Assembly (NCBI GenBank): GCA_016650215.1 | Contig: JAENWF010000164.1 | Location: forward strand, 1-47,454 | From: Thermoanaerobaculia bacterium | Lineage (GTDB): Bacteria > Acidobacteriota > Thermoanaerobaculia > Gp7-AA8 | DNA: 47,454 nucleotides | Reading direction: 5' to 3' | In this document: positions 1,318 to 22,152 of the stretch, one piece after another | Position numbering within the stretch: position 1 is the first letter of the stretch | Layout of the letters: every line of letters begins with the position of its first letter | Position numbers and translations under genes: made by a program | Notes under the pieces: generated by a model | The model's database searches: none | What the model saw: the letters and a program-made list of their open reading frames with translations, nothing else | Told to the model about the DNA's origin: nothing

Positions 1318-1393
1318 TCGTCTCTTGTTCGAGAATTCTCTCGTAATGTTTACCACGCGCAACCCATTCGCGTTCGAGCCGTAACACCACGGC

Positions 1394-2431: not shown

Positions 2432-2432
2432 T

Positions 2433-2638
2433 GGGGTCAGGTCTTGATTTTTGCGTTTGGAGACGGTGAAAGAGCAAAAATCAAGACCTGACCCCCACTC
2501 GGCGTAGAAGATTTCGGCCAGTTCTGTCGCCTTTGAGCCCGCGATTTCCACCGCTTGTGGAGTTGTAGAGAGAACGGGGTCAGGTCTTGATTTTTGCGTT
2601 TGGAGACAGTGGAGAAGCAAAAATCAAGACCTGACCCC
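2433..2638. repeat. Composite double-hairpin element, copy 1 (two 63-bp perfect-stem hairpins separated by an 80-nt spacer)
   Basis: GGGGTCAGGTCTTGATTTTTGC (19-nt loop) GCAAAAATCAAGACCTGACCCC occurs at 2433-2495 and again at 2576-2638. The whole unit recurs in inverted orientation at 25460-25665. Confidence 0.9.
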
Positions 2639-3322
2639 GAGAAGCCACGCGGGAAGGTCGCGAATCGACGAGAGCTTCTCGATTGCTCGACCCCCGATCT
2701 CCGCATCATCGACATGCTCGTGCGCCCACGTTGTCTGATACGGAATGTGCACTGCTCGGGCTCCCGCTTCGAGTGCCGGGAGAATGTCGGAGCGGAGTGA
2801 GTTGCCGACCATGAGAAAGCGCGCGGGGTCGACGCCGGACTTGGTGATGATCGAGCGGTACGTCTGCGCGTTCTTGTTGCTCACGATTTCTACGGCGGAG
2901 AAGTGCTCGCCGAGGGCCGACCGGGCGAGCTTTGATTCCTGATCGAAGAGGTCGCCTTTCGTCAGCAGCATCAATCGATGCCGGCCGGCGAGCTCTCCGA
3001 TCGTCTCCGCGACCCCATCGAGCAACTCTACCGGAGCATGCAGCATCTCGTGACCCCAGTCGATGATGGTCCGGATGTCCGCGCCGCGAATCTCCCCCTC
3101 GGTGAGCTCTACGGCGGTCTCGATCATCGAGAGGATGAAGCCTTTCACGCCGTAGCCAAAATGCGCGAGATTGCGCATCTCGGTCTCGAAGAGCCGGGCG
3201 CGCGTCAGATCCTCGGGATGGTAGTGGGCGAGCAGCGCGGCGAACTGCGCCTCGGTTGCCTGGAAACGAGTCTCGTTGTGCCAGAGAGTGTCATCGGCGT
3301 CGAAGGCGATGATGTCGATCAT
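2624..3322 (-). CDS. HAD-superfamily hydrolase
   Basis: N-terminal HAD motif I (IIAFDADDTLW). Later motifs LLTKGD and MVGNSLRSD are present. 232 aa. Confidence 0.85.
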   Translation of the reverse strand: MIDIIAFDADDTLWHNETRFQATEAQFAALLAHYHPEDLTRARLFETEMRNLAHFGYGVKGFILSMIETAVELTEGEIRGADIRTIIDWGHEMLHAPVELLDGVAETIGELAGRHRLMLLTKGDLFDQESKLARSALGEHFSAVEIVSNKNAQTYRSIITKSGVDPARFLMVGNSLRSDILPALEAGARAVHIPYQTTWAHEHVDDAEIGGRAIEKLSSIRDLPAWLLGVRS

Positions 3323-3335
3323 CGTCGCGGCACGC

Positions 3336-4451
3336 TCAGCGGACGGTGACGGACGAGTCCACGTCCTTTTTCCAGCCGAGCATTCCGCCGGCGAGGTTTT
3401 TTACCTTCTTGTAGCCGTTGCTCATGAGGAACTGCTGCGCGCGCGCGCTGCGTCCACCCGAGCGGCAGATCATGATGATCTCCGCATCGGCCGGAATCTC
3501 AGTAGCCCGAGCGGGAACCTGCTGCAGCGGAATGTGCATCGCGAGTTCGAGATGTCCGCCGTCCCATTCGTGTGGCTCGCGCACGTCGACAAGGACCATC
3601 TTGTCCCCACGCGAGATCCGTTCGGAAAGTTCAGATGCTGTGATGTCGAGCTCGTTCACTGGATTGCAGAACTCCTCGTAGTCAATCAGTTCGCGGATCG
3701 TTCGTTTCGGTCCGCAGAGTCTGCATTCTGCATTCTTTGCAAGCCGCACGGTGCGGAAACTCATCGCGAGCGCGTCGAACATCAGCAGCCTTCCGATGAG
3801 CGGCTCCCCAACGTCTGCGATCAGCTTGATTGCCTCGGCTGCCTGAATGGTGCCGATGATTCCCGGCAGCACGCCGAGAACGCCTCCTTCAGCGCACGAC
3901 GGAACGAGATGCGCCGGCGGCGGCTCCGGATAGAGACAGCGGTAGCAGGGACCGCGCCGCGTGTCGAAGACCGATGCTTGTCCTTCGAAGCGGTAAACAG
4001 AACCGTATACGTTCGGCTTGCCGAGGAGCGCGCAGGCGTCGTTGACCAGATAGCGTGTCGGAAAGTTGTCGGTGCCGTCGACGACGACGTCGTAAGGCTC
4101 GAGTAACTGCAGTGCATTGCGCGAAGAGAGCGCCTCGTTGAACGTCTCGACTCGCACGTGCGGATTCAGATCGCCGAGGCGCTCGCGCGCGGCATCGAGC
4201 TTTCGCTTGCCGACCGACGACTCGCCATAGAGGATCTGGCGCTGCAGGTTCGAGGAGTCAACGCGATCGAAGTCTGCGAGTCCGATGCGCCCGACGCCGG
4301 CGGCGGCCAGGTACATCGCGACCGGACTGCCGAGTCCTCCCGCGCCGACGATAAAGACCGACGCGGATCGCAGCTTGCGCTGTCCCGCCTCGCCGATCTC
4401 CGGCAGAACCAGGTGCCGCGCGTAGCGGGAGCGCTCGGAGTCGGTGAGCAT
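3336..4451 (-). CDS. moeB: MoeB/ThiF-family adenylyltransferase with C-terminal rhodanese domain (MoeZ/MoeBR type)
   Basis: RYARHLVLPEIGEAGQRKL and the nucleotide loop VGAGGLGSP are present, along with CYRCLYPEPP and a second Cys pair. The C-terminal rhodanese part carries the CRSGGRS active-site loop. Confidence 0.88.
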   Translation of the reverse strand: MLTDSERSRYARHLVLPEIGEAGQRKLRSASVFIVGAGGLGSPVAMYLAAAGVGRIGLADFDRVDSSNLQRQILYGESSVGKRKLDAARERLGDLNPHVRVETFNEALSSRNALQLLEPYDVVVDGTDNFPTRYLVNDACALLGKPNVYGSVYRFEGQASVFDTRRGPCYRCLYPEPPPAHLVPSCAEGGVLGVLPGIIGTIQAAEAIKLIADVGEPLIGRLLMFDALAMSFRTVRLAKNAECRLCGPKRTIRELIDYEEFCNPVNELDITASELSERISRGDKMVLVDVREPHEWDGGHLELAMHIPLQQVPARATEIPADAEIIMICRSGGRSARAQQFLMSNGYKKVKNLAGGMLGWKKDVDSSVTVR

Positions 4452-4457
4452 GATTGG

Positions 4458-4904
4458 TTAGGGCAGGAGTCGCGCGACGATCTCCTGAATCTTCTTTCCG
4501 TCGGCGCGTCCTTTGTATCGAGCCGAGGCTTCCTTCATGACTTTGCCGAGATCTTTCTTCGACTGCGCGCCCGTCGAGGCGACGATCTCGCGCAGGCCTG
4601 ACTCGAGCTCGGCGTCGGAAAGCTCGGCGGGGAGATACGTCTTGAGGAGCTTCATCTCCGACTCTTCCTTTGCGGCGAGCTCGGTGCGGTTGGCTTTCGT
4701 GTACTGCTCGATGGAGTCGAGGCGCTGCTTCACAGCTTTGCGGATGACGGCAAACGCCTCGTCATCGCCGAGCTCATGACCGGCGCTGATCTGCTCGTAT
4801 TTGAGCGACGACTGCAGCATGCGAAGCGTCGAAGTCCGCTCCGCATCACGCGCCTTCATCGACTCGGTGAGGTCCGCGCGGATCTGTTCAGTCAGCTTGC
4901 CCAT
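4458..4904 (-). CDS. GatB/YqeY domain-containing protein
   Basis: Track ORF 4458-4958 trimmed to Met19 (CAT 4902-4904), which is preceded by GGGAGA. MGKLTEQIRADLTESMKARD...KDLGKVMKEA is typical of the YqeY family. Confidence 0.8.
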   Translation of the reverse strand: MGKLTEQIRADLTESMKARDAERTSTLRMLQSSLKYEQISAGHELGDDEAFAVIRKAVKQRLDSIEQYTKANRTELAAKEESEMKLLKTYLPAELSDAELESGLREIVASTGAQSKKDLGKVMKEASARYKGRADGKKIQEIVARLLP

Positions 4905-5038
4905 TGGCTCAAGTCTCCCAGGGCGCATTCTATTCGGGAGCGCGATCTCGCGGGACACGCGGGCCGGTGATGGCCGGCACCTGCACTGAAGAAGAGTTGC
5001 TTCAGTCTTGGCGGAATTGTTTAGTGTTGAAATCCGTC

Positions 5039-7222
5039 ATGAATCCCGTGTTCAGGATCAAAACCACCTTTGCAGCGCTCGCCCTCTCCATTGGTCTTCT
5101 TGGAACGGCGTGGGCCGGATCAGAGATCCCGCTCACCCCAGCTGCCATCGGGCCCGCGGACAGTCGGCAGGGAAGCCCGAACGTTGCCACTGACGGCAGA
5201 GACTTTCTTGCTGCGTGGATTGATTCGCGTGGGATCTATGCGACGCGAGTGAGCTCTGCCGGAGAAGTCCTCGACGGGACCGGGATTCGGATTCCCATTA
5301 ACCCGCTTGCGTGGAACCCTTCTATCGTCGCGGTGCTCTGGACCGGCGAGACGTACGCCATCATCCACACATACCAGATGTATCAGCGTACCCTCACGCT
5401 GGTCGCGCGCGTCTCGCGGTTCGGCGAGTGGGCCGATGGGCCGCGGGTGATTCTCGAGCGGGTACCGTATGCGGCAGCGAGCAACGGACGGCTCGTGGTG
5501 ATCTCGACCGATCGGGAGATCTACGTCACCGACTCCGAGTTCCAGGATTTTCGGAGGATCGCGCTGAGCTCAGGTGCCAGAGAGCAACTCGCCGCGTCGA
5601 ACGGCTCGACATTCCTCGTCGCCACGAACTCGCCCGCCGAAGTGCCGAACTGGGTGGATCTCACGCCGATCGACGCGACGGGAGAGGCGGGAGTGACCTC
5701 GCGCGACAAGGCCGTTTCCCGAATTACGTTCCTTGTCTCCGCAGGCGAGGATTACCTGCTGCGCCTGGAGGATTCGACCGGCAGCAGACTCCTCCGCATT
5801 GCACCGGATGGCACGGTCAAGAGCGTCGTTGCTCTTCCGAATGCATCCGCGATCATCAACACGAGCGCGGTCTTCGTCCAGGAGCGATTCCTCCTCATGA
5901 CAGGACTAAGGAGGGATTCTTTCGATGTCGTGATCACGCTCAATGCCGTGGACGGAACCCTCAACCAGCCGGAGACCGTTCTGCAGCCTGGCCGGCCGGG
6001 TTTCGCGCAGTCCCCGAAAATCGCCTGGAACGGCAGCCGCGCACTGGTGGTCTGGACGGACCCAACGGAGTCGCGCGTGATTGGAGTCATCGCCGGTCCG
6101 GACGCGCAGCCGAAAACCGCGCCATTCCATCTCGCGAGATCCGCAGCCCGCCAGCACTCGACGGTGATCGCGACCGGAGGCGAGTACGACCTTGTTGCGT
6201 GGATCGAGCGCTCCGAGGCGCGTGCGGTTCTCGTCGATGCAGCCGGCCAACCGAGGGGTGACAGCGTCCGGATCGCCACGGCAGACGGCTCGTCCGTGAT
6301 TTCGAACCTCCAACTACTCTTCGACGGCAGCGAATACGTGATGTTCTGGAAGACGAACGGCGGAGTGTTCTCGAAGAGGATCGACGATGCGACCGGACTG
6401 CCGCAGGATCCGGTCTTGAGTGCCGGCGCCTGGACTTCGTTCCACGTCGTGCGCACCGATGATGGGCTCTTCTTGTTTGGCGAACGCAACTCGATGGTGT
6501 GGGTCGTGCCACTCCCCCGTTCCGGAGGGTTGCCGGGAGATGCTGTTGCAATCTCGCCGTCGGGCATGCTTGCGACGAACCCGCGAGCCGCGTGGAATGG
6601 CAGCGAGTGGCTGGTCGTCTGGCACGAGCTCGTCAAAGTCGACGACTACCAGTTCTATCCGATCTATCAGGTGAGTGTGCTCGCGCGCCGGGTGTCGAGA
6701 GGGCTTGTGCCGCTCGAGATAGAGCCGATCGGGATCGCGAGGCGCACCTTTTCCGCTCTGCCGGTGCCGCCCCAGGTTTCGACCGATGGAGTGGATTTCG
6801 TCGTTGCATGGACGCAAACGGTGCTCGTAAATGACTCGCCGGCCGGCCTGCTCGCGCGACACGTCCCTGCACGCGGATCGCCGGGCAAGCCCAACCTTGT
6901 CGTGCCCGGCACGTTTCTGGACGCCCACGCCATGGTCTGGGACGGGAGGCGCTACGCGATTGGATTCGCCCATGAGGAGTACACCCTCCCGAGCGATCTT
7001 TTCCTCACGTACGCGGGACCGGACGGCGCCGGTAGCGGCGTGAAGCTGGCGATCAGCGCAACCCCCGAGCAGGATGTGTATCTCTCGCTCGTGGCCCGCG
7101 GTCCAGGCCTCATCCGTTTGGCTTACTCGCGCACGGTCATCGAGCCAGAGTACGGTGGAGTTCTCCGTGCGTTCCTCCGCGACATCGATCCTCCGCGTCG
7201 CCGGGCTGTGGTCGCGCGATGA
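5039..7222 (+). CDS. Secreted repeat protein of unknown function (propeller-like W-rich repeats)
   Basis: Track ORF 4904-7222 trimmed to the ATG at 5039, which opens a clear signal peptide (MNPVFRIKTTFAALALSIGLLGTAWA). A motif recurs along the protein: DFLAAWID, ALVVWTD, DLVAWIE, YVMFWKT, WLVVWHE, DFVVAWTQ. Confidence 0.7.
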   Translation: MNPVFRIKTTFAALALSIGLLGTAWAGSEIPLTPAAIGPADSRQGSPNVATDGRDFLAAWIDSRGIYATRVSSAGEVLDGTGIRIPINPLAWNPSIVAVLWTGETYAIIHTYQMYQRTLTLVARVSRFGEWADGPRVILERVPYAAASNGRLVVISTDREIYVTDSEFQDFRRIALSSGAREQLAASNGSTFLVATNSPAEVPNWVDLTPIDATGEAGVTSRDKAVSRITFLVSAGEDYLLRLEDSTGSRLLRIAPDGTVKSVVALPNASAIINTSAVFVQERFLLMTGLRRDSFDVVITLNAVDGTLNQPETVLQPGRPGFAQSPKIAWNGSRALVVWTDPTESRVIGVIAGPDAQPKTAPFHLARSAARQHSTVIATGGEYDLVAWIERSEARAVLVDAAGQPRGDSVRIATADGSSVISNLQLLFDGSEYVMFWKTNGGVFSKRIDDATGLPQDPVLSAGAWTSFHVVRTDDGLFLFGERNSMVWVVPLPRSGGLPGDAVAISPSGMLATNPRAAWNGSEWLVVWHELVKVDDYQFYPIYQVSVLARRVSRGLVPLEIEPIGIARRTFSALPVPPQVSTDGVDFVVAWTQTVLVNDSPAGLLARHVPARGSPGKPNLVVPGTFLDAHAMVWDGRRYAIGFAHEEYTLPSDLFLTYAGPDGAGSGVKLAISATPEQDVYLSLVARGPGLIRLAYSRTVIEPEYGGVLRAFLRDIDPPRRRAVVAR

Positions 7223-11544: not shown

Positions 11545-13956
11545 GTGATCCGATCCCGCGGACTGCGCGCGTTTCTGACTCTTGCCGGACTTGCTGGCCT
11601 CACCTACCTCTTGGCGAGCCTTTACCTTCCGTCTTCGCGGCGGTTGATCTTTGGCGTCGACAAGAGGAGCGGGAGCGTGCGGATGGTGCGGCAGAACGTG
11701 ACGTATCTGCCGCCGCATCGTTTCTACCGGCTCACGTTCGAGAAGCGCGACGGAGCGGCGCAGCGCGATGGTCTTGTGCGGATCGTGTCGAAGGAAGGCG
11801 TTCCGGTCACAATCAACTACCGTTTGCGTTTTGGCGTAGAGGGAAATCAGATCTCGGATTCGCGCCGCCTCGTGACTGACGGTTGGAACGGTTGGATTCG
11901 CGCGCGGGTCGGGGAGGCGGTGTCGGCGGTTACGAAGCAGGTTTCGATCGAGGAGCTGCTCTCGCCGAGCTCGCGGTTCAATCAACAGCGCGATCCGCTT
12001 CGCCGCGTCGTCGCGGCGCATCTCGCGCAGAGCGGATTGAAGGTCGCAGCGTTCGAAATCGCCCGCATCGAAGCCGACCGTGGCGCGCTCCTTCGCTACA
12101 AGCGCGCCGAGCTCCGGCGCGGTGCGCGCGGCGTCGCCGGCCGGGTGGCGGTCTTCGCGATCGACGGAGCCGATTGGGACTTGATTCAGGAGCTCGCGAA
12201 CGACGGGCGCATCCCAAACATCGCGGCGCTCGTGCGCAATGGCACGACGGCATCGCTTCAGACGATTCAACCGACCGTCTCGCCGCTGGTCTGGACGACG
12301 CTTGCGACAGGCGTCTCACCCGACCGTCACGGGGTCATCGATTTTCTCGCAGGCGTGGCGCCGGTCGACTCGAACACGCGCCGCTCTCCGGCCGTGTGGG
12401 AGATCGCGGAGGCATTCGGGCGTCCCGCGGTCGTCGGCAACTGGTGGACGGCCTGGCCTCCGATGGAGGGGGAGACGGTGGTCTTCGATACTCCCGTGCA
12501 GCTCCTGGACGATGCGATCTACCCGGCATCAGCCGCTCCCAGGATGCAGTCGGCCCTCGTTCCTGTCTCCACGATCGGATCCGAGCAGGTGCGGCGGTTT
12601 CTGAACATCACGGGCGCCGAGTACGACCAGGCTGTCGCCGCGAACAATCCGGCCGACCCGGTCAACATTTTCCGCGGCGTGCTCGCGAAGACGTGGACTG
12701 ATCACCGCACCGCGATGAACCTCTATCGCGACAAGGCGCCGCTGCTCCTCATGATGTCGTACGAGGGAACCGACGTCGCCAATCACCTCTTCGCGCCGTA
12801 CCACCCGCCTTACCGCGAGGGAATCAGCCAGGAGCAGTACCGCAAGTATTGGCCGACCGTCGCAAACTACTACTCCGAGATCGACCGTCTCATCGGCGAG
12901 TGGATGCAGGTGCTCAGCGAAGACACGACGGTGATGATCGTGTCGGCCCATGGATTCCGATGGGGCAAGCCGCGGCCGCGTGTGCAGCCGGTCGGGCGCG
13001 CGGCGCTTTCGGATCACCGGAATCCCGGCGTGTTCATCGCGTACGGAAATCACGTCGCGCCAAACCGTGGAAGCCACACGATCTCGATCTACGACCTCAC
13101 CCCAACCATCCTCGCAATCCTCGGGCTTCCCGCCTCGGGCGACATGCAGGGGACGGTAGCGCGGTGGGCCTTCAAGGACATCGCTCCGGTAGAGTCAGTC
13201 GGCGTTGTCAGCTACAGCGAGGTTCTCAGCGACCGGCCGTTGGCCGTGACTCAGCGCGTGAACGCGCAGATATATCAGCGCAATCTCCAGGCGATCGGAC
13301 ACATGCTCGACTTGGCGCAGAGCGCATTGCCGCAGCTCGATGAGCAGGAGAATCCCGCGGTGGCCGCGCAGCCGTTGCCCCCTGACCAGTGGGGCCTCTA
13401 CGCTTTTCGCAACAATCAAGGGATCGAACTTCGGAAGCAGGGAAAGACGCGCGAGGCAGTCGAGGCGTTCCAGAAAGCGATCGACATCAATCCGACGCGT
13501 CCCACGCCTTATCTCAACATGGCGATGACGCTCTTCGACCGGCAGCAGTACGCGGCGGCGGATGACGTGTTCATGCAGGCGGTGACGAAAGGACTCCCGA
13601 ACGCCGACCGCTGGTTCGTCGACTTTGCGTCGCTCTATCGCAGCAGGGACATGACGGCGCGCGCGATTTCGCTGCTCTTCAAAGGCAAAGAGATCTTCCC
13701 GCAGTCGTTCATCATCGCCGCGAATCTCGGCTCCGCACTCTCGCAAGCCGACCGATACGCGGAGGGACTCGGCGAGCTCGAGCGCGCTCTCAGCCTTCAG
13801 CCTTCGTCGACCACCGCGCTCAACAACCTCGCGACCGTCTACGCGAAAAAGAACGAGTACGCGCGCGCACTCGACTTCTGGAACCGATCGCTCGCGATCA
13901 ATCCCCGCCAGCCCGAGATCCGCGTCGCCGCGGAATCGGCGCAGACGCATCTTTAG
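11545..13956 (+). CDS. Membrane-anchored SPFH-like / alkaline-phosphatase-superfamily (nucleotide pyrophosphatase-phosphodiesterase type) / TPR fusion protein
   Basis: GTG start with an N-terminal TM segment (LTLAGLAGLTYLLASLYL), followed by a Band7-like segment. The AlkP core reads VAVFAIDGADWDLI...TIQPTVSPLVWTTLATGVSPDRHGV. The C-terminus has TPR repeats (AVEAFQKAIDINP, YARALDFWNRSLAINP). Confidence 0.8.
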   Translation: MIRSRGLRAFLTLAGLAGLTYLLASLYLPSSRRLIFGVDKRSGSVRMVRQNVTYLPPHRFYRLTFEKRDGAAQRDGLVRIVSKEGVPVTINYRLRFGVEGNQISDSRRLVTDGWNGWIRARVGEAVSAVTKQVSIEELLSPSSRFNQQRDPLRRVVAAHLAQSGLKVAAFEIARIEADRGALLRYKRAELRRGARGVAGRVAVFAIDGADWDLIQELANDGRIPNIAALVRNGTTASLQTIQPTVSPLVWTTLATGVSPDRHGVIDFLAGVAPVDSNTRRSPAVWEIAEAFGRPAVVGNWWTAWPPMEGETVVFDTPVQLLDDAIYPASAAPRMQSALVPVSTIGSEQVRRFLNITGAEYDQAVAANNPADPVNIFRGVLAKTWTDHRTAMNLYRDKAPLLLMMSYEGTDVANHLFAPYHPPYREGISQEQYRKYWPTVANYYSEIDRLIGEWMQVLSEDTTVMIVSAHGFRWGKPRPRVQPVGRAALSDHRNPGVFIAYGNHVAPNRGSHTISIYDLTPTILAILGLPASGDMQGTVARWAFKDIAPVESVGVVSYSEVLSDRPLAVTQRVNAQIYQRNLQAIGHMLDLAQSALPQLDEQENPAVAAQPLPPDQWGLYAFRNNQGIELRKQGKTREAVEAFQKAIDINPTRPTPYLNMAMTLFDRQQYAAADDVFMQAVTKGLPNADRWFVDFASLYRSRDMTARAISLLFKGKEIFPQSFIIAANLGSALSQADRYAEGLGELERALSLQPSSTTALNNLATVYAKKNEYARALDFWNRSLAINPRQPEIRVAAESAQTHL

Positions 13957-13957
13957 A

Positions 13958-14141
13958 CTGAGTGCTGAGTCTTGAGTGCTGAGTCCTGAGTCCTGAGACT
14001 GAGTCCTGAGCGGATCATCGCTCGTGGGCCTGTGTCATCCCGAGCGCAGCGAGGGATCCCCCGCGTCCGGGCCATCATCATCTTGGCGCGGGGATTCTTC
14101 GCTTCGCTCAGGATGCCATCGTCCTCTCAGCACTCAGCACT
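13958..14141. repeat. CTGAGTG/CTGAGTC heptamer array plus nested REP-like hairpin
   Basis: A heptamer array lies at 13958-14010. A REP hairpin pairs GTCATCCCGAGCGCAGCGAGGGATCCCCCGCG with CGCGGGGATTCTTCGCTTCGCTCAGGATG (14034-14115). The complementary CTCAGCACTCAGCACT lies at 14125-14141. Confidence 0.85.
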
Positions 14142-14208
14142 ATGGTGCGCCTTCGGTGACGGTTGACACTTGACGTGCACCCGGAGCCGAAATACCATTC
14201 CTTGTCTG

Positions 14209-14223
14209 GACTGAGACTCAGTC
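14209..14223. promoter_or_regulatory. Perfect 7-1-7 palindrome GACTGAG-A-CTCAGTC 21 nt upstream of fur (candidate operator)
   Basis: The palindrome is read directly from the sequence. Its position, between a TTGACA/TTGACG pair (14163-14176) and the fur ATG, is suggestive. It does not resemble the AT-rich canonical Fur box. Confidence 0.25.
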
Positions 14224-14243
14224 TCAACTAACAACGGACGGCA

Positions 14244-14750
14244 ATGGCCCATCTCATCAAGGAAATCGGACGCTTTCAGGAGTTCCTTCAGAAGCAGGGA
14301 CTCAAGCTCACAGGCGAGCGGACCGCGCTTCTCCGCGAGATCTTCTCGACGCACTATCACTTCGAGGCGGACGAGCTTCTCTTCAAGATGAAAGAGAAGG
14401 GGGCCAAGATTTCTCGCGCCACCGTCTACCGCACCCTCGAACTGCTCGTGAAGTCAGGCATGGTCCGCCGCGTTCACCTCGGCGAGGATCACTACCACTA
14501 CGAGCACGTCACCGGGAACTCGCATCACGATCATCTGATCTGCACCACGTGCGGCGGCGTCATCGAGTTCAACGACCCGATTCTCGAAGAGCGCCAGCAC
14601 GAGATCTGCGCGAAAAAGAAGTTCACCCCCACGTTCCACAACCTTCAGATTCTCGGCGTATGCGACTCATGCACGAAGAAGGGCGAGCAGCCCGACGCAC
14701 CCGACCGCGTGCAGATGATTCAAACCGCTTCACTCCGGCTCCGAAAGTGA
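14244..14750 (+). CDS. fur: Fur-family metalloregulator
   Basis: Winged helix ISRATVYRTLELLVKSG, metal site HHDHLICTTCG and a second CDSC pair are present. It is the first gene of an iron-transport operon. Confidence 0.9.
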   Translation: MAHLIKEIGRFQEFLQKQGLKLTGERTALLREIFSTHYHFEADELLFKMKEKGAKISRATVYRTLELLVKSGMVRRVHLGEDHYHYEHVTGNSHHDHLICTTCGGVIEFNDPILEERQHEICAKKKFTPTFHNLQILGVCDSCTKKGEQPDAPDRVQMIQTASLRLRK

Positions 14751-14754
14751 CCTC

Positions 14755-15522
14755 ATGATCAACGCGCTCATCATCGTCTTCCGCGAAGGCTTCGAGGCCT
14801 TCCTCACCGTCGCGATCATCTTCGCGTATCTCAGCAAGACCGGGCGTACCTGGCTGCGACCGGCCGTCTGGTGGGGAATCGGTGTCTCGGTTCTCGCGAG
14901 CTTCGCACTCGGGCTCGTGCTGCAAAGGGTCAATCAGCCGTTGTGGGAGGGCGTCCTGGCTCTCGTGGCCGCGGTGCTCGTTGCTACGTTTGTCCTGCAG
15001 ATGCTGCGCACGGCGCCGCGGATGAAGCGGAATATGGAGCAGAAGCTCGAGCATCATGCGACGCGGGGCAGCCGCGCGCTCGCGATTGCCGGCACGTTCT
15101 TCTTCACGCTGCTCATGATCACGCGGGAAGGAATGGAGACCGCGCTGATGCTGATTCAGGTACGCCAGCCGGGCTTCACGATCGGCGCGATTCTCGGCGC
15201 CGCCGCGGCGGCCGGCCTCTCGTGGATCTGGGCTCATTACGCGCCGTACATCAACCTCAAGCGCTTCTTCCAGGTGACCGGCCTCTTTCTGCTGATGTTC
15301 ACCGGCCACGTCATCTTCTATGCGATTCATGAGTTCTCTGAGGCAGAGCTGCTTCCGAACAGTGAGGCAATTCACACCGCGACCGAACCGTGGACGCCCA
15401 TCGGCATCTACGGGAAGTGGGTATCGATCGGCATGATCGCGGTCTGTGCGGCGTGGCTCATCGGATCTTCGATCGTCGACCGGATCCGCGCGGCCCAGCG
15501 AATTCCGGCAGAGGCACCATGA
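14755..15522 (+). CDS. FTR1/EfeU-family high-affinity iron permease
   Basis: Polytopic protein carrying the two signature REGxE motifs (REGFEA near the N-terminus, REGMET mid-protein). Confidence 0.9.
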   Translation: MINALIIVFREGFEAFLTVAIIFAYLSKTGRTWLRPAVWWGIGVSVLASFALGLVLQRVNQPLWEGVLALVAAVLVATFVLQMLRTAPRMKRNMEQKLEHHATRGSRALAIAGTFFFTLLMITREGMETALMLIQVRQPGFTIGAILGAAAAAGLSWIWAHYAPYINLKRFFQVTGLFLLMFTGHVIFYAIHEFSEAELLPNSEAIHTATEPWTPIGIYGKWVSIGMIAVCAAWLIGSSIVDRIRAAQRIPAEAP

Positions 15523-16478
15523 AGCTGGCGGCGACAGTCATCATCCTGCTCGCCGCCGCTCCCGCCAGTACCGCTGAAGTCAGCAGGGCTCGGTACCTGA
15601 TGGGAACGGTGTGCGAGGTCAGCGTCGAGGGCGGGGTCGAGCCGGAGAAGCAGATCGCTCGCGCGTTCGCCGAGGCGGAGAGGATCGAGGGATTTCTCTC
15701 GACATGGCGCGAGGGGAGCGAACTCTCCAGATTGAACCGGGACGGCGATCTCGCCGTGTCACCGGAACTGTCGAAACTCCTGCGCTCGGTCGTCGATCAG
15801 TCGCGCCGCACCGGTGGCACGTTCAATCCGTTGATGCGCCCGCTGATCGACGCGTGGAAGACGCGCTTCGCGGGAGCGATTCCATCGCGCGACGCGATCG
15901 CCGCGGCTCTGAAGGCGATTGCATCATCGAATGTCCGCTTCGTCGAGCTCACCCGCGTCGTTCTCATCAACGGTGCGAAGTTCGAGGAGGGGGGATTCGG
16001 CAAGGGCTACGCGATCGATCGCATGCTTGCCGGGATCGCGTCGAGTCGAGCCCTGATCAACTTCGGCGGCCAGATCGGCGTCCGCGGCGAGCGCGAGGTG
16101 ACGATTGCCGATCCTGCCGACCGCCATCGTCCAGTCGTCGCATTCACGATTCACGACGCGTCGCTATCCACCAGCTCGGGATCGGAGAAGTCGTTCGTCA
16201 TCGGCGGTCGAACGCTGTCGCACATCATCGACCCGCGCACCGGCGAGCCGCTCCCGCCTCGCGGCTCCGCATCAGCCATCTCATCCGACGCACTCACTGC
16301 CGACATTTTCTCGACCGCTCTCTATGTGATGGGACCGGAGGAGGGTATTCGGTGGGCGAATGCGAACGGCGTAGCCGCAGCGTTCATCGGCGAGTCCTTC
16401 ATCTACGTGTCGAAACAGTTTCTCGAACGCGCGCGCGGGATCACAGTTCTCGACCCCAACTTCACCCTAAAGGATTGA
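15519..16478 (+). CDS. apbE: FAD:protein FMN transferase (ApbE family), exported
   Basis: Track ORF trimmed to the ATG at 15519, which overlaps the FTR1 stop (ATGA). Signal peptide MKLAATVIILLAAAPASTA is present. ApbE motifs are YLMGT, GGFGKGYAID, LSTSSGSEK and SHIIDPRTG. Confidence 0.9.
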   Translation: MKLAATVIILLAAAPASTAEVSRARYLMGTVCEVSVEGGVEPEKQIARAFAEAERIEGFLSTWREGSELSRLNRDGDLAVSPELSKLLRSVVDQSRRTGGTFNPLMRPLIDAWKTRFAGAIPSRDAIAAALKAIASSNVRFVELTRVVLINGAKFEEGGFGKGYAIDRMLAGIASSRALINFGGQIGVRGEREVTIADPADRHRPVVAFTIHDASLSTSSGSEKSFVIGGRTLSHIIDPRTGEPLPPRGSASAISSDALTADIFSTALYVMGPEEGIRWANANGVAAAFIGESFIYVSKQFLERARGITVLDPNFTLKD

Positions 16479-16480
16479 AC

Positions 16481-17773
16481 ATGTTGAAGCATGGTTTGGC
16501 ATTCTTACTTTCACTGTTCGTTGCATCCGCTTCGCTTGCGCAGGAAGCGCCCGCTGCGGCGGAGCTCGAGTCGCGCGTCAGGGAGATGCAGCGGCAGATC
16601 GAGATTCTCATCACCGAGATCGAAGCGCTGAAGAATCGGCAGGCCGACAAGCCTGCTGCTGCCGACATCGAGCAGTTCGGCCTCGGCGCTGCCGCGTCGA
16701 AGGTCTATCGCGCGCAGCCCGGCGTGTCGTTCGGCGGCTACGGCGAGTTCCTCTATCAGAATGTCGCGGGAAGCAACGACGCCGGCGCGAGAGTCAGCAC
16801 ACGCGACACCGCCGACCAGCTGCGCGCCGTCCTTTACACCGGCTACAAGTTCAACGACCGCATCCTCTTCAACTCCGAAACGGAGTTCGAGCATGGCTCG
16901 ACCGGAGCCGGGGGCGAGGTCTCGGTCGAGTTTGCGTATCTCGATTTCCTCGCACGCCCCGACCTCGGAATCCGAGCGGGACTTTTTCTCGTTCCGATGG
17001 GCTTCATCAACGAACAGCACGAGCCGACCGCCTACCTCGGCTCTCGCCGCCCGCTCGTCGAGCGAACGATTATTCCCGCGACGTGGCGCGAAATGGGAGC
17101 CGGAATGTTCGGTGAGAACGGGCCTGTGAGCTGGCGCGCGTATCTGACGACAGGTTTGGACGCCGCGCGGTTTACATCGGGCGGCATTCGCAGCGGCCGC
17201 GGCAACGGCGCGCAGTCACTCGCCGAGGATTTCGCGTTGACCGGACGCCTCGACTATCAGCCGGTGGTCGGAACGGTGCTCGGGGTGTCGGCCTACAGCG
17301 GGAACTCCGGCCAGCGCGCCGTGGCTAACGGCGAGGAAGTGAAAGCGCGCGTCACGATGTTCGATCTGCACGCGGAGTCGCGCCTTCGCGGACTGCAGCT
17401 CCGCGGCCTCTGGACGCGTGCCACGCTCAACGACGCGGCAATGGTCAACGCGCTCAACAAGCTCACTGGCACGAATTCGGTCGGCGAGAGCTTTGGTGGA
17501 TGGTACGGTGAGATCGGATACGACCTCGCTTCGTTTCGCGGCTTCGGTGAGCGCTCAATCACGCCGTTTGTCCGCTACGAGAAGCTGAACCCCCAGCGCA
17601 GTGTTCCGACAGGCTTCTCGCTCAACCGCGCGCTCGACCAGGCGATCACTACGATGGGGCTTCAGTGGAAGCCGATCAGCCAGACGGTGATCAAGGCCGA
17701 CTACCAGAATTTAGACAACGAAGCCGGAACAGGCACGAATCAGTGGAATGTCTCTTTGGGATACATCTTCTGA
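16481..17773 (+). CDS. Outer-membrane porin-like beta-barrel with N-terminal coiled coil
   Basis: Track ORF 15611-17773 trimmed to the ATG at 16481, 3 nt after the apbE stop. Signal peptide MLKHGLAFLLSLFVASASLAQE is followed by the coiled coil ELESRVREMQRQIEILITEIEALKNRQ. The rest is Gly/aromatic-rich alternating sequence ending ...NVSLGYIF. Confidence 0.7.
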   Translation: MLKHGLAFLLSLFVASASLAQEAPAAAELESRVREMQRQIEILITEIEALKNRQADKPAAADIEQFGLGAAASKVYRAQPGVSFGGYGEFLYQNVAGSNDAGARVSTRDTADQLRAVLYTGYKFNDRILFNSETEFEHGSTGAGGEVSVEFAYLDFLARPDLGIRAGLFLVPMGFINEQHEPTAYLGSRRPLVERTIIPATWREMGAGMFGENGPVSWRAYLTTGLDAARFTSGGIRSGRGNGAQSLAEDFALTGRLDYQPVVGTVLGVSAYSGNSGQRAVANGEEVKARVTMFDLHAESRLRGLQLRGLWTRATLNDAAMVNALNKLTGTNSVGESFGGWYGEIGYDLASFRGFGERSITPFVRYEKLNPQRSVPTGFSLNRALDQAITTMGLQWKPISQTVIKADYQNLDNEAGTGTNQWNVSLGYIF

Positions 17774-18306
17774 TGAAGCGCTTCGCAATCGGCGTCATCC
17801 TCGCGACGGCCGCGCTGTCGGCGCATGCGCGCGTCTTCATGACGCAGCAGCAGGCGCTCGCCGCCGCGTTCGCCGCCGGCACGAAAGTGACGCGGCAGAG
17901 CGTCTTTTTGACCAGGCAGCAGCTCGACGCAGCAAGGAAGAAGTCCGGTCTCGACCTGCAGGGCCAGCTTGTCGTTCGGTATGCGGGACTCGCCGGAGGG
18001 AAGGTCGCCGGCTTTGCCTATTTCGACACCCACCGCGTGCGAACGTTGCCCGAGACGGTGATGATCGTGGTCGGATCCGACGGCAGGATTGCAGCGATCG
18101 AGGTCCTCTCGTTCGATGAGCCTCCTGACTACGCGCCGAAAAAGCGCTGGATCGATCAGTTCAAGGGGCGAAAGCTCGAGGACGAGCTTTCGCTGAAGCG
18201 CGCGATCCGTCCGATGTCGGGCGCGAGCCTCACTGCACGCGCTGTCCTCGAGGCATCGCGCAAAGTCCTCGCGCTGCACGAGGTGATTGGTGCCGAGGTG
18301 AAATGA
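17773..18306 (+). CDS. Exported FMN-binding (FMN_bind) domain protein, likely ApbE substrate
   Basis: The ATG at 17773 overlaps the porin stop (TGATG). Signal peptide MKRFAIGVILATAALSAHA is present. The C-terminal MSGASLTARAV matches the SGA(T/S)LT flavinylation motif of NqrC/RnfG-type domains. Confidence 0.75.
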   Translation: MKRFAIGVILATAALSAHARVFMTQQQALAAAFAAGTKVTRQSVFLTRQQLDAARKKSGLDLQGQLVVRYAGLAGGKVAGFAYFDTHRVRTLPETVMIVVGSDGRIAAIEVLSFDEPPDYAPKKRWIDQFKGRKLEDELSLKRAIRPMSGASLTARAVLEASRKVLALHEVIGAEVK

Positions 18307-18731
18307 GCCGCGCGCAAGTCTTCTATCTTCACGTCACGCTTGCGCTCACGACGCTGACAGGCCTCGTCTTCGCAGCGATGAAGTACTGGATGAAGGGCGA
18401 GGACGAGTTCGCAGCAGCGAATCATCCATGGCAGCCTCACATGCTGTCGGCTCACGTCGTGATCGCGCCGATTCTTCTCTTTGTCATCGGATGGGCGTTT
18501 GGCAATCACATCCTGCCCAAACTGCGGTTCGGAGGCGACGAAGGAAACCGCCGAAGCGGAATCTGGTCGATGCTGCTCATCGCGCCGATGACGCTCTCCG
18601 CCTACCTGATGCAGATCGCGACAAACGACGCGATCCGCAAGGCGATGGCCATAAGCCACTGGGTGACGTCGGCGATCTTCCTGATCGGGTATGTAGCCCA
18701 CTTGCTCGCCAAACCGCCGAAAGAAGACTGA
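18303..18731 (+). CDS. Small His-rich integral membrane protein (about 4 TM), function unknown
   Basis: The ATG overlaps the upstream stop (ATGA). There are four hydrophobic segments. His residues lie in or near them (YLHV, HPWQPHMLSAHV, GNHI, ISHW, VAHL). Confidence 0.6.
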   Translation: MSRAQVFYLHVTLALTTLTGLVFAAMKYWMKGEDEFAAANHPWQPHMLSAHVVIAPILLFVIGWAFGNHILPKLRFGGDEGNRRSGIWSMLLIAPMTLSAYLMQIATNDAIRKAMAISHWVTSAIFLIGYVAHLLAKPPKED

Positions 18732-18861
18732 GAGAAGGACGAGAGGGCGAGAAGACGGCGTTTCTTTGGCCCTCCCGTAGCCCGAAAGACGCGGCAACAG
18801 AACGACGACAAGTAGCGCCCGCCCGCGCATTTGGTTGGTGGACGGTCTACTATCTCCCGCC

Positions 18862-21800
18862 ATGAAATTCGCAATTGCCGTCGTCATCGCGTCCGCTTCG
18901 ATTCTCGGCAGCGCCTCGCTCCACGCAGCCGATGCCAAACCCGAAGACACTTCGAAGTACGGAGAGAAGACATTCGCCGGACTCCAGCTTCGCGGGATTG
19001 GGCCGGCCCTCACCTCGGGACGCATCATCGACATCGCAGTCGATCCTCGCGATCACAACACCTGGTTCATTGCCGTCGCATCCGGCGGCGTCTGGAAGAC
19101 GACCAATGCCGGCACGACCTTCACGCCCGTCTTCGACGGCGAGAAGTCGTACTCGATCGGCTGCGTGACGATCGATCCGCGCGACTCGCTGACCATCTGG
19201 GTCGGGAGCGGCGAGAACAACAGCCAGCGCTCGGTGGCGTGGGGTGATGGCGTCTATAAGTCGACTAACGGTGGAAAGTCGTGGACCAACGTCGGACTCG
19301 CAAAGTCAGAGCACATCGGAAAGATTCTCGTCGATCCGCGCGACTCCAACGTCGTGTACGTCGCCGCGCAGGGGCCGCTGTGGAATGCCGGGGGCGATCG
19401 CGGGCTGTTCAAGTCGACCGATGGAGGCAAGACTTGGAAGCCCGCGCTCAAGATCAGCGAGAACACGGGCGTCAGTGACATTGTGTTCGAGCCGGGTAAT
19501 CCTGATGTTCTATATGCCGCTGCGTATCAGCGACGCCGTCACGTCTTTACGCTGATCAACGGCGGACCCGAGTCCGGCATCCACAAGTCGTCCGACGGCG
19601 GTACGACATGGACAAAGCTGACGGAAGGCCTGCCGAAGGAACAGATGGGGAGAATCGGCCTCGCGATTTCGCCGCTCGCTCCCAGGACGGTCTATGCGAT
19701 CGTCGAAGCGGCGCGAAAGAGCGGCGGATTTTTCCGCTCGACGGACGGCGGCGCGAACTGGGAGAAAACAAACTCGTACATGTCGGCGAGTCCGCAGTAC
19801 TACAACGAGATCTTCGTCGATCCAAACAACGCCGATCGCGTCTACTCGATGGATACCTACCCGCGCGTCAGCGACGACGGCGGAAAGACGTTCCGCAAGA
19901 TCGATCAGAACCTCGTGCATGTCGATCACCATGCAATCTGGATCGATCCTGACAACAGCGATCACATTCTGATCGGCAACGACGGCGGCCTCTACGAAAC
20001 GTTCGACCGCGGAAGTGCGTGGAACTTCAAACAGAATCTTCCGGTCACGCAGTTCTACAGGATCAGCGCCGACGACGCGCTGCCCTTCTACCATGTGTAC
20101 GGCGGCACTCAGGACAACTTCAGTCTCGGCGTTCCCTCACGGACCACCACTGCTCACGGCATCACGAGTTCAGACTGGTACATCACCCTCGGTGGTGACG
20201 GATTCCGCACGATGGCCGACCCCGAAAACTCCGACATCGTCTACGCGGAATCTCAGAACGGAGGCCTCGCCCGTTTCGACAAGCGAACGGGTGAGGCGCT
20301 CGATATCCAGCCGCAGGCCACCGGCAGCATGGCCCCGCTCCGGATGAATTGGGACTCGGCGCTCATCGTCAGCCCCCACAAGAGCAGCCGCATCTATTTC
20401 GGCGCACAGTATCTGTTCCGAAGCGACGATCGCGGCGATACGTGGAAGGCGGTGAGCGGCGATCTCACGCGCAACATGGATCGCAGCAAGCTGCCGGTCA
20501 TGGGACGTGTCTGGGGCGTGGACGCAGTCGCGAAGAACGCGTCGACTTCGTACTACGGCAACATCGTCTCGCTCGCCGAGTCGCCGCTCAAAGAGGGTTT
20601 GATCTACGCCGGCACTGACGACGGACTGATTCAGATCAGTGAGGACGGCGGCGCGAACTGGAGGAAGGTCGAGAAGTTTGCGGGCGTGCCCGACATGACG
20701 TACGTGTCGCGTCTCGAGACATCCGCGCACGACGCGAACACGGTCTATGCCGCGTTCGACAATCACAAGACGGGCGACTTCAAGCCGTACGTCCTCAAGA
20801 GCACCGACCGCGGGGCGACGTGGAAATCGCTGGCGTCGAACCTGCCGGCAAACGGCACGGCGTACGCGATCGTGGAGGACCACGTCGATCGCAATCTTCT
20901 CTTCGTCGGAACCGAGTACGGACTCTGGTTCACGCAGAACGGCGGAGGGACCTGGATCCAGCTCAAGGGCGGTCTGCCGACGATCGCGGTGCGTGATCTC
21001 TGGATTCAGAAGCGTCGCAACGATCTCGTCGTCGGTACGTTCGGCCGCGGCATCTACATCCTCGACGACTACCGTCCGCTGCGCACGATGACCGAGACGA
21101 CCGCCGCCGCCGAAGCCGTATTGTTTGCACCTCGCGCCGCCGAACTTTACGTCGAGCGGATGCCGCTCGGACTCCCGGGAGCCGCGTTTCAGGGCGCCTC
21201 GTTCTACACCGCTCCCAATCCGCCGTTCGGAGCCGTCTTCACGTACTACCTCAAGGACGAGCTCAAGAGCCGGCGCAAACAGCGCTGGGCGGAGGAGTCG
21301 CGTGTCGAAAAGGATGGCAGCAACGAACCGCCACCGATTCCGTACCCGACGCGCGAACAGTTGCGCACAGAACTTCGCGAAAGTGAGCCGGCGGTCGTGT
21401 TCGTTGTTTCGGACGACGAGGGCAACGTAATCCGCCGTGTGACCGGTCCGGTCACGGCCGGATTTCATCGCGTGGCGTGGGACCTGCGCTATCCCGCGCC
21501 GCTTCCGATCGAGGTCACGCCTCCGGAGCCGAACCTCTTCCAGGCACCCCCGGCTGGACCTCTCGTCGCACCGGGAAGGTACACGGTCCGACTTTCGAAA
21601 CGGATCGACGGAATCGAGACGCCACTCGGCGAAGCGCATCCGTTCGAAGTCGTTTCTTTGTACCTTTCGATCATGAATGCGGCCGACCGCAACGCGGTGC
21701 TCGAGTTTCAGAAGAGGGCGTCACGGCTCCAGAAGACCGCAATGGGGATCGACAAGGCGACGGCGGAGACGTTGACGCGCGCGCGGTTGATCCGCCGTGC

Positions 21801-22152
21801 ACTCGACGAGATCGAAGGACCCGATACGAAGCTCCTCGGACGCGTCAACGCACTCGAAGCCGTACTTCTCGATATCGACGAAGAGCTCAATGGCGATGCC
21901 GTGCTCAAAGCGCAGAATGAACCGGCCCCGCCGACGCTGCTCGAGCGCGTGACGACCGCTGTCAATGGTCTGACAACGACGGCTCCACCGACGGGCACAC
22001 ATCGCGAAGCGTTGTCTCTTGCGGAAGCGCAGATGAAGCCACTGCTCGAAAAGCTGCGCCGTGTCATCGAGGTTGATCTCGCGGCTATCGAGAAGGAGCT
22101 CAATCGAAGCGCTGCGCCGTGGACGCCGGGGAGGATTCCGGACTGGAAGTGA
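18862..22152 (+). CDS. Secreted BNR/Sortilin-Vps10-repeat (glycosyl-hydrolase-like) double-propeller protein
   Basis: Trimmed to the ATG at 18862 with signal peptide MKFAIAVVIASASILGSASLHAADA. Asp-box motifs recur: YKSTNGGKSW, FKSTDGGKTW, HKSSDGGTTW, FRSTDGGANW, SEDGGANW, KSTDRGATW, TQNGGGTW. Confidence 0.85.
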   Translation: MKFAIAVVIASASILGSASLHAADAKPEDTSKYGEKTFAGLQLRGIGPALTSGRIIDIAVDPRDHNTWFIAVASGGVWKTTNAGTTFTPVFDGEKSYSIGCVTIDPRDSLTIWVGSGENNSQRSVAWGDGVYKSTNGGKSWTNVGLAKSEHIGKILVDPRDSNVVYVAAQGPLWNAGGDRGLFKSTDGGKTWKPALKISENTGVSDIVFEPGNPDVLYAAAYQRRRHVFTLINGGPESGIHKSSDGGTTWTKLTEGLPKEQMGRIGLAISPLAPRTVYAIVEAARKSGGFFRSTDGGANWEKTNSYMSASPQYYNEIFVDPNNADRVYSMDTYPRVSDDGGKTFRKIDQNLVHVDHHAIWIDPDNSDHILIGNDGGLYETFDRGSAWNFKQNLPVTQFYRISADDALPFYHVYGGTQDNFSLGVPSRTTTAHGITSSDWYITLGGDGFRTMADPENSDIVYAESQNGGLARFDKRTGEALDIQPQATGSMAPLRMNWDSALIVSPHKSSRIYFGAQYLFRSDDRGDTWKAVSGDLTRNMDRSKLPVMGRVWGVDAVAKNASTSYYGNIVSLAESPLKEGLIYAGTDDGLIQISEDGGANWRKVEKFAGVPDMTYVSRLETSAHDANTVYAAFDNHKTGDFKPYVLKSTDRGATWKSLASNLPANGTAYAIVEDHVDRNLLFVGTEYGLWFTQNGGGTWIQLKGGLPTIAVRDLWIQKRRNDLVVGTFGRGIYILDDYRPLRTMTETTAAAEAVLFAPRAAELYVERMPLGLPGAAFQGASFYTAPNPPFGAVFTYYLKDELKSRRKQRWAEESRVEKDGSNEPPPIPYPTREQLRTELRESEPAVVFVVSDDEGNVIRRVTGPVTAGFHRVAWDLRYPAPLPIEVTPPEPNLFQAPPAGPLVAPGRYTVRLSKRIDGIETPLGEAHPFEVVSLYLSIMNAADRNAVLEFQKRASRLQKTAMGIDKATAETLTRARLIRRALDEIEGPDTKLLGRVNALEAVLLDIDEELNGDAVLKAQNEPAPPTLLERVTTAVNGLTTTAPPTGTHREALSLAEAQMKPLLEKLRRVIEVDLAAIEKELNRSAAPWTPGRIPDWK

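Follow-up and report, generated by a model that had tools for sequence, protein, structure and literature searches.

A candidate reductive iron-uptake operon of Thermoanaerobaculia combining a Fur-type regulator, an FTR1 permease, a predicted flavinylated protein and a dedicated porin-like barrel

The window analyzed here, the whole 47,454-nucleotide stretch of contig JAENWF010000164.1 from a Thermoanaerobaculia bacterium (Acidobacteriota, assembly GCA_016650215.1), carries at positions 14244-18731 a six-gene operon encoding a Fur-family regulator, an FTR1-type iron permease, an ApbE flavin transferase, an outer-membrane protein (OMP), an FMN_bind protein and a small membrane protein (memb). 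Our favored reading, which we hold with moderate confidence, is that this operon specifies a Fur-repressed, iron-starvation-inducible system for reductive iron uptake in its Gram-negative host. With these six genes, the host, a soil-type acidobacterium, would probably combine periplasmic ferric reduction by a covalently flavinylated protein with import.

The six genes are the following.

14244-14750, forward strand: fur, Fur-family metalloregulator, 168 amino acids (aa)
14755-15522, forward strand: FTR1, FTR1/EfeU-type iron permease, 255 aa, about seven transmembrane (TM) segments
15519-16478, forward strand: apbE, exported ApbE, flavin adenine dinucleotide (FAD):protein flavin mononucleotide (FMN) transferase, 319 aa
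16481-17773, forward strand: OMP ("porin") gene, outer-membrane 16-strand porin-like barrel, 430 aa
17773-18306, forward strand: FMN_bind gene, exported FMN_bind protein, 177 aa, predicted ApbE substrate
18303-18731, forward strand: memb gene, small inner-membrane protein with four TM segments (4-TM), 142 aa

The initial annotation of this region had described six co-directional and closely coupled genes, and every element of that layout was recovered. All six open reading frames (ORFs) lie on the forward strand; the fur stop codon TGA (14748-14750) is followed by the 4-nt gap CCTC and the FTR1 start codon ATG at 14755, FTR1 and apbE overlap in ATGA at 15519-15522, the apbE stop codon TGA (16476-16478) lies 2 nt ahead of the OMP start codon ATG at 16481, the OMP and FMN_bind genes share TGATG at 17771-17775, and the FMN_bind and memb genes share ATGA at 18303-18306. 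The assigned names also held in hidden Markov model searches, where Pfam FUR, FTR1, ApbE and FMN_bind all scored above threshold. Those checks suggested with the initial annotation that are feasible in silico all turned out in its favor.

Evidence for a functional system comes from locus comparison. The names of homologs place the organism in the Thermoanaerobaculia (Acidobacteriota). A profile of the OMP was scanned against one genome per species, giving 310 loci, of which 80 were examined by running the six window proteins against them with tblastn; ORF calls in the high-GC loci among them are heuristic. Of about 30 Thermoanaerobaculia loci that are informative, about 25 have the order fur-FTR1-apbE-OMP-FMN_bind-memb with its tight spacing, and both are kept across dozens of genomes at 45-85% protein identity. 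Outside this class, Holophagaceae (including the cultured Geothrix campi and G. terrae) and one Gemmatimonadota genome have apbE-OMP-FMN_bind-memb without fur or FTR1, and in 37 Methylococcales loci OMP-FMN_bind precedes a gene for another membrane protein, about 170 aa long, so that the core of OMP, FMN_bind and membrane protein, with or without apbE, extends to Holophagae, Gemmatimonadota and Methylococcales and spans four lineages. As judged from this comparison, the conserved unit is the porin-flavoprotein-membrane protein module, and fur and FTR1 are Thermoanaerobaculia-specific additions. The gene-neighborhood check proposed with the initial annotation thus favors it, about 25 Thermoanaerobaculia genomes having all six genes in this order, with the qualification that the core is the OMP-FMN_bind-membrane protein module and not an FTR1 system.

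These data also bear on whether the six genes are adjacent by chance and form no functional system. Downstream of position 18731 we found no intrinsic terminator, the region folding no better than shuffled sequences, and this want of a clear terminator or operon boundary speaks for chance. The conserved order and spacing, the recurrence of the core in four lineages and the natural fusions of components (memb-ApbE and FMN_bind-ApbE) already contradict it, and we give chance adjacency next to no probability.

Within the module, the FMN_bind gene lies closely 3' of the OMP gene in nearly every locus with enough sequence; a cytochrome c peroxidase (CCP)/MauG or other gene stands between the two in a few loci, and L051 is the sole locus that keeps flanking sequence and has no FMN_bind gene. 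The intervening gene of some Methylococcales (L048, 9261-10694; L079, 4314-5525) is di-heme CCP/MauG-like and lies within a Fur-box-controlled module. The third gene of the Methylococcales loci (product beginning MRYFVTGEQQR...) was considered as a memb homolog and rejected, as hhalign finds no homology; a weak Pfam scan gave no match for its product, which is, on profile comparison, a positional analog only of the acidobacterial membrane protein.

The direction of the chemistry is suggested by a change of transporter. Two Thermoanaerobaculia loci (L025 and L027) have FTR1 replaced by FeoB (FeoB_N, 3e-48) and a DtxR/FeoA protein (Fe_dep_repr_C/FeoA), encoded between fur and apbE-OMP-FMN_bind-memb; an ORF called at 6161-6856 of L025 was dismissed as spurious, a product of high GC, and the DtxR/FeoA protein is encoded by the true gene in a different frame. 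FeoB is an Fe(II) transporter that carries out no oxidation. That two unrelated iron importers were recruited to one module therefore argues that the module delivers Fe(II), and hence reduces Fe(III). This is the strongest comparative argument that we have: the FTR1/FeoB swap, with the same apbE-OMP-FMN_bind-memb module behind either importer, points to Fe(II) as the product passed to the transporter, and it sustains the original proposal of a ferric reduction that feeds the permease.

The permease itself matches FTR1 (PF03239) at 1.5e-29 (103.7 bits against a cutoff of 25.3) and NCBIfam EfeU at 6.7e-39, below cutoff, and presents about seven hydrophobic segments and two REXXE motifs, REGFE at residues 10-14 and REGME at 124-128. 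Characterized FTR1-type permeases usually have a ferroxidase or iron-binding partner (Fet3, EfeO/EfeB, P19 or FtrB), and the characterized FTR1/EfeU systems (Fet3-Ftr1, EfeUOB, FtrABCD) couple transport to Fe(II) oxidation. An FtrABCD-like arrangement would have Fe(II) enter through the porin and be oxidized at FTR1, with the FMN_bind and membrane proteins acting as the electron sink, like FtrB and FtrD, and the flavoprotein accepting electrons. No match to EfeO/EfeB, P19 (PF10634), cupredoxin or polyferredoxin was obtained with Pfam and NCBIfam among the six proteins or their neighbors, and an FTR1 accompanied by a periplasm-to-membrane redox pair and by no P19, cupredoxin or EfeO requires some other filler for that role, as this arrangement would offer. 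We nevertheless rate oxidative coupling as very unlikely, given that the module is coupled to FeoB/FeoA in L025 and L027, that it stands alone in Geothrix and Methylococcales, and that covalent FMN centers such as those of NqrC and RnfG have low potentials, which makes Fe(II) oxidation unfavorable.

Reductive uptake as we propose it requires a flavinylated carrier, and the operon encodes both a candidate and an ApbE predicted to modify it. ApbE covers its Pfam profile in full (PF02424, 1.4e-53, 182.6 bits, profile positions 1-266 of 266), the FMN_bind protein scores 29.4 bits against a cutoff of 22 (PF04205, 1.3e-6), and both carry N-terminal hydrophobic signal-like segments; in Acidobacteriota and Gemmatimonadota, apbE and the module are conserved together. 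Ser152 is the predicted FMN acceptor because the segment IRPMSGAS aligns with the flavinylated TGST (Thr) of RnfG (9eri_G). The [S/T]GA[S/T] motif is present in all 77 FMN_bind homologs aligned, taking the canonical form DGISGAT in Methylococcales, and the earlier suggestion that the co-encoded ApbE flavinylates this protein thus gains a predicted attachment site. A natural FMN_bind-ApbE fusion occurs in L090. This locus is a low-GC variant in which two Fur boxes, a porin homolog, two single-domain response regulators, DUF2325 and a DUF3576-like protein precede the fusion (500-6100).

Electron supply to such a carrier would fall to the small membrane protein. Its AlphaFold2 (AF2) model consists of four long helices (predicted local distance difference test, pLDDT, 74.4), and a profile search of 1.84 billion representatives places it in a family of 919 clusters at 50% identity. 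Alignments, for which database homologs were used (several automatically extracted high-GC ORFs were wrong-frame), leave G20, H51, H69, H119 and H133 as the only invariant columns among 69 members of 30-59% identity. On the model, H51 and H69 lie on TM2 and H119 and H133 on TM4, with H51 and H119 near the periplasmic helix ends and H69 and H133 near the cytoplasmic ends. The protein falls below the gathering score of the cytochrome b561/DUF4405 clan (PF01292, PF14358), and among 28 homologs sub-threshold matches were obtained to Ni_hydr_CYTB (cytochrome b561) in 10 and to DUF4405 in three. Of the ten longer family representatives that were scanned, eight have the 4-TM domain fused to a full ApbE (P0252, P0267, P0286, P0300, P0307, P0331, P0347 and P0353); P0345 joins the 4-TM domain to a Phenol_MetA_deg outer-membrane barrel and may be a gene-calling artifact. 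The distant variant L086, which comprises a Fur box, an OMP of 28% identity, FMN_bind, a PepSY_TM protein and ApbE, has the PepSY_TM protein in the slot of the membrane protein. PepSY_TM is a known heme-b membrane partner in flavinylated iron-reductase systems (PMC8238504, PMC10979944), and the bis-His di-heme pattern has been used to recognize DUF4405, PepSY and MsrQ cytochromes (PMC10979944). Together, the invariant histidines, the ApbE fusions, the sub-threshold cytochrome b561/DUF4405 matches and the PepSY_TM replacement make a role in transmembrane electron delivery likely, and the protein is probably a di-heme cytochrome b of an undescribed family. The electron input first ascribed to a "small His-rich membrane protein" is hence supported by these features, and the wording is to be amended: the protein is small and has conserved histidines, but it is not generally His-rich and lies below Pfam thresholds.

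The frequent fusion to ApbE could also be understood if the membrane protein were a FAD exporter, or a membrane partner of ApbE supplying periplasmic FAD, and no cytochrome at all, with electrons coming from a carrier encoded elsewhere. The lack of a significant match to solved cytochromes and the sub-threshold Pfam cytochrome matches agree with such a role, which we think quite unlikely even so: apart from one Gly, the only invariants are four His paired near both membrane faces on TM2 and TM4, a classic bis-His signature, and a PepSY_TM protein fills the same gene slot in L086.

The OMP has no Pfam or NCBIfam match and more than 2700 homologs, all unnamed. Its AF2 model (pLDDT 70.8) begins with a signal peptide and a helix at 26-52 and continues as a beta-barrel of about 16-18 strands, and Foldseek searches of the PDB return the 16-strand trimeric porins OmpM1, OmpU, OmpC, OprO and DcaP (E-values from 9e-13 to 3e-9), so that the guess of a porin is supported at the level of the predicted fold; a profile search against PDB sequences returned coiled-coil noise only. 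With DcaP (6eus), OmpM1 (8byt) and OprO (4rjw) the model shares TM-scores of about 0.53-0.72 (target-normalized), a signal peptide, an N-terminal helix or coiled coil and a C-terminal Phe. Unlike these porins, to which it is only 11-15% identical, the OMP belongs to no Pfam family, and its family has invariant motifs of its own (GLGAAASKVY, E-x-E-x-EH, NEQHEP and IPxTWxE) and is almost always linked to an FMN_bind gene. An alignment of 88 sequences, the most distant at 26% identity, shows 66 positions with conservation of 95% or more. Among them, E133, E135, E137 and H138 alternate on one strand, and N177/H180/E181, R190, E194 and T201/W202/E204 lie in a long loop at the site of the porin constriction loop; residues 171-202, which link strands 5 and 6, show high conservation and are modeled at low confidence. 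Such strong conservation of a Glu/His-rich lumen suggests, on this model, that the substrate is a specific one, probably a cation or a metal. The idea of a flavinylated barrel, as in DUF3570, was considered and rejected, there being no Pfam match and no [S/T]GA[S/T] site in the OMP (the nearest is STGAG).

Regulation by iron is indicated by the region upstream of fur, which contains two features.

14170-14198, forward strand: sigma-70-type promoter TTGACG-17-TACCAT, the only promoter-like site in 13900-19000
14212-14226, no strand assigned: predicted Fur-family operator TGAGACT-C-AGTCTCA, a perfect 7-1-7 palindrome about 14 nt 3' of the -10 box

The regulator matches the Fur family (PF01475) at 1.7e-33 (115.8 bits against a cutoff of 23.1), has an HHDH motif and two CxxC pairs, and finds its best NCBIfam matches in Fur equivalogs (5e-26, below equivalog cutoffs), ahead of PerR and Zur. 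The palindrome has a single match in the window (0.16 expected). When upstream regions are aligned, the palindrome and the -35 and -10 boxes are conserved and the flanks are not, and in other Thermoanaerobaculia loci TTGAC.../TACACT boxes are likewise conserved 5' of fur. The palindrome appears a single time per locus, at the equivalent position, in 28 related loci; both FeoB variants have a second copy directly 5' of apbE, and Holophagaceae and Gemmatimonadota have one or two degenerate 7-1-7 copies (e.g. TGAGAATGGTTCTCA) 5' of apbE. Its architecture is that of Fur-family boxes (TGATAAT-N-ATTATCA), and it also resembles the Irr ICE motif TTTAGAA-N3-TTCTAAA; it can equally be written TTGAGAC-N3-GTCTCAA and is non-canonical with respect to the classical Fur box. 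A literature search found no paper containing the palindrome as a string.

A metagenome contig scan with the exact 17-mer TTGAGACTCAGTCTCAA yielded at least 120 matches, with GC contents of 26-73% among the matches listed; since tens of copies of a 17-mer are to be expected in each terabase, some of these must be accidental. Pfam families were counted in 111 ORFs that begin beside the 17-mer, again among the matches listed, and included FUR 22 times, FeoB six, ferritin five, FeoA four and ApbE twice, with heme oxygenase, HemS, ChaN and a TonB receptor also present. Because the 17-mer adjoins Fur, FeoAB, ferritin and heme genes in unrelated contigs, the palindrome is, by its gene context, a probable iron-regulon Fur box in use well beyond the Thermoanaerobaculia. 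In Methylococcales, the motif A[AG][TG]AAT[CG][AG]TTTG[CT]A overlaps the -35 box of the OMP promoter in 24 of 37 loci, is found nowhere else in 475 kb and agrees with the classical 7-1-7 Fur box in 11 of 14 positions. With an operator at the promoter and a palindrome that marks iron-regulon genes, the Fur-dependent, iron-responsive control predicted earlier has in silico support in four lineages, and Fur probably autoregulates the operon.

The intergenic stretch 13957-14142, 5' of the fur promoter, contains units of GAGTGCTGAGTC and CTGAGTC in short tandem arrays, CTCAGCACTCAGCACT as an inverted copy, and GTCATCCCGAGCGCAGCGAGGGATC, which resembles a REP element. At the equivalent spot, the short tandem repeats of other Thermoanaerobaculia loci are different ones, such as CAACCAG four times in L006.

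Taken in sequence, the proposed steps of reductive uptake are as follows. In iron-replete cells the operon-encoded Fur would bind TGAGACT-C-AGTCTCA and shut off the operon, its own gene included. Upon derepression, the porin, probably a trimer with an acidic/His lumen, would let in Fe(III), either inorganic or in weak chelates, and perhaps Fe(II) as well, while periplasmic ApbE, using FAD, would attach FMN covalently to Ser152 of the FMN_bind protein. The 4-TM protein would hold two b hemes, through His51/His119 on the outer side and His69/His133 on the inner side, and hand electrons of the quinol or cytoplasmic pool on to the flavoprotein, which would reduce Fe(III) to Fe(II); FTR1, with its two REXXE motifs, or FeoB in relatives, would then import the iron. 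In this scheme we infer which way electrons flow, what the porin admits, the occupancy by heme and FMN and any contacts between the parts.

Several observations weigh against this reading. The metal sensed is not readable from the sequence of this Fur paralog, and the regulator is a predicted iron sensor only. The operon encodes no Fet3-, EfeO-, EfeB-, P19- or FtrB-type partner for FTR1. The flavinylation motif of the window protein, R-P-M-S-G-A-S, departs from the consensus D-x-x-[S/T]-G-A-[S/T] by an Arg in place of Asp, and its acceptor is Ser, which is less efficient than Thr; Arg or His occupies the Asp position in Thermoanaerobaculia FMN_bind proteins, and the Asp has been reported as conserved but substitution-tolerant, its change to Ala having minor effects only (PMC12052999). 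The membrane protein has but a weak Pfam match to Ni_hydr_CYTB (1.5e-3, 18.8 bits against a gathering score of 30.1), no significant Foldseek match in the PDB (best E-value 1.4) and no match in a profile search against PDB sequences, and its TM2 histidines are spaced by 18 residues, against the usual 13-14. The AF2 models of the OMP and of the membrane protein are of moderate confidence only. Finally, Geothrix and Methylococcales carry the module without an adjacent iron transporter, which implies that its product need not go to a dedicated permease.

A transporter-less module in Geothrix, a genus that respires Fe(III), is also compatible with an iron-sparing or general periplasmic redox device that adjoins FTR1 for regulatory convenience only. 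The flavoprotein might then replace c-type cytochromes under iron limitation, feed a peroxidase or serve as a dissimilatory or extracellular electron outlet; the di-heme CCP/MauG gene inserted in some Methylococcales fits this idea, and Fur regulons commonly include iron-sparing substitutes. We consider such a device improbable, in these several forms as in general, for it leaves unexplained both the near-obligate pairing with a dedicated porin of acidic/His lumen and the repeated recruitment of FTR1 and FeoB to the same transcription unit. Its respiratory form meets two further difficulties: one FMN is unable to bridge the outer membrane, and a respiratory iron reductase would require the reverse of derepression by Fur when iron is low.

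The proposed uptake route can be carried further, to a single physical trans-envelope machine made of the porin, the flavoprotein and the 4-TM cytochrome, an extension that we regard as doubtful. The flavoprotein would dock on a metal-selective porin, at its periplasmic coiled coil or mouth, and reduce Fe(III) as it emerges, with wiring to the inner membrane by an unrecognized di-heme cytochrome b family. If true, the machine would be a flavin-based counterpart to porin-cytochrome conduits, and a Fur-controlled general route in at least four lineages would provide siderophore-free Fe(II) for Feo/FTR1-type importers in diderm bacteria.

Flavinylation has been tied to iron assimilation before, through PepSY-like, MsrQ-like/VIT1 and P19-FTR1-FMN_bind clusters (Méheust et al. 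2021, PMC8238504), and DUF4405 and FezC cytochromes were later added to the flavinylated systems (Huang et al., PMC10979944). The PepSY-like systems (PMC8238504; FoxB and others, PMC10979944) resemble the operon in their extracytosolic ApbE, flavinylated periplasmic protein (predicted here) and His-ligated membrane cytochrome (putative here); they are Fur-repressed in the cases studied, with Fe(III) reduction for assimilation proposed, and the L086 variant, with PepSY_TM after its porin and FMN_bind genes, comes close to them. In contrast to those systems, the window has no PepSY_TM (PF03929/PF16357), DUF2271 or DUF4198; its membrane part belongs to an unrelated, much smaller 4-TM family without Pfam model, its flavoprotein is of FMN_bind type, and it has a dedicated porin where they have a TonB-dependent receptor and FTR1 where they have VIT1. 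The P19-FTR1 clusters with an FMN_bind gene, 260 in number and mostly Gram-positive (PMC8238504), and Campylobacter cFtr1-P19 share the link of FTR1 to an FMN_bind ApbE substrate and a proposed redox iron uptake. They differ from the operon, which lacks P19, encodes a putative membrane electron-transfer protein and Fur, and resides in a diderm host, so that a porin is needed. FtrABCD (Bordetella, Brucella, Burkholderia) and EfeUOB are likewise iron-regulated and combine a REXXE FTR1/EfeU permease with periplasmic and membrane redox partners, but these partners (P19/cupredoxin/polyferredoxin or EfeO/heme peroxidase) are thought to oxidize Fe(II), whereas the window operon has a flavoprotein and a putative cytochrome b instead and FeoB-coupled relatives that argue for reduction.

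A similar logic is found in cyanobacterial reductive uptake (Fe' via porins, periplasmic reduction, FeoB) and in the yeast Fre-Fet3-Ftr1 route, where Fe(III) passes the outer barrier, is reduced extracytoplasmically with electrons delivered via a b-type heme protein and enters through a dedicated permease. The proteins differ, being the ARTO oxidase in cyanobacteria and NOX-type Fre reductases in yeast, and to our knowledge neither route uses a covalently flavinylated carrier or a co-transcribed dedicated porin. The operon would act like the flavinylated iron-assimilation systems but, being without above-threshold PepSY_TM, MsrQ, P19 or DUF4405, fails their operational definitions, and what it newly adds is a porin family dedicated to the system, a small cytochrome-like family not described before and an in-operon Fur with a non-canonical box. 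The initial annotation knew of no characterized FTR1 system with a porin and an FMN_bind protein, in line with our literature search, which found no paper describing this gene set; the supplementary tables of PMC8238504, in text form, contained none of the taxa searched for.

The wider interest of the locus lies in several of its parts. It is a compact, testable candidate system for extracytoplasmic ferric reduction, a process that is poorly defined for assimilation, most "assimilatory ferric reductases" being unspecific flavin reductases. It brings to light an uncharacterized porin family with more than 2700 homologs and no Pfam model, almost always paired with a predicted flavinylated protein, and a likely new family of small di-heme cytochromes b with about 900 clusters at 50% identity, some of them ApbE-fused; it also presents the iron importers, FTR1 or FeoB, as interchangeable. 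The non-canonical Fur box, common to many non-proteobacterial phyla, would assist the prediction of regulons in soil bacteria that are uncultured. Genetics is feasible, as the core module has cultured carriers (Geothrix campi, G. terrae, Methylovulum miyakonense and M. psychrotolerans).

The rest of the 47-kb window contains no further iron genes and is otherwise of housekeeping character. The Sortilin/BNR gene that follows the operon at 18862-22152 was considered as a seventh member and left out, because it is syntenic in none of the related loci. Directly 5' of the operon, at 11545-13956 on the forward strand, lies a gene for an 803-aa phosphodiesterase/sulfatase-like and TPR protein. Its synteny with the fur operon extends to most Thermoanaerobaculia loci, and it forms a separate transcription unit without evident functional link to the operon. 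Farther downstream, on the reverse strand at 29319-36527, a single 2402-aa ORF comprises DUF748, a TamB domain, four POTRA repeats and an Omp85 barrel, apparently a fusion of TamB to a TamA/BamA-like protein and an unusual architecture for a translocation-and-assembly module.

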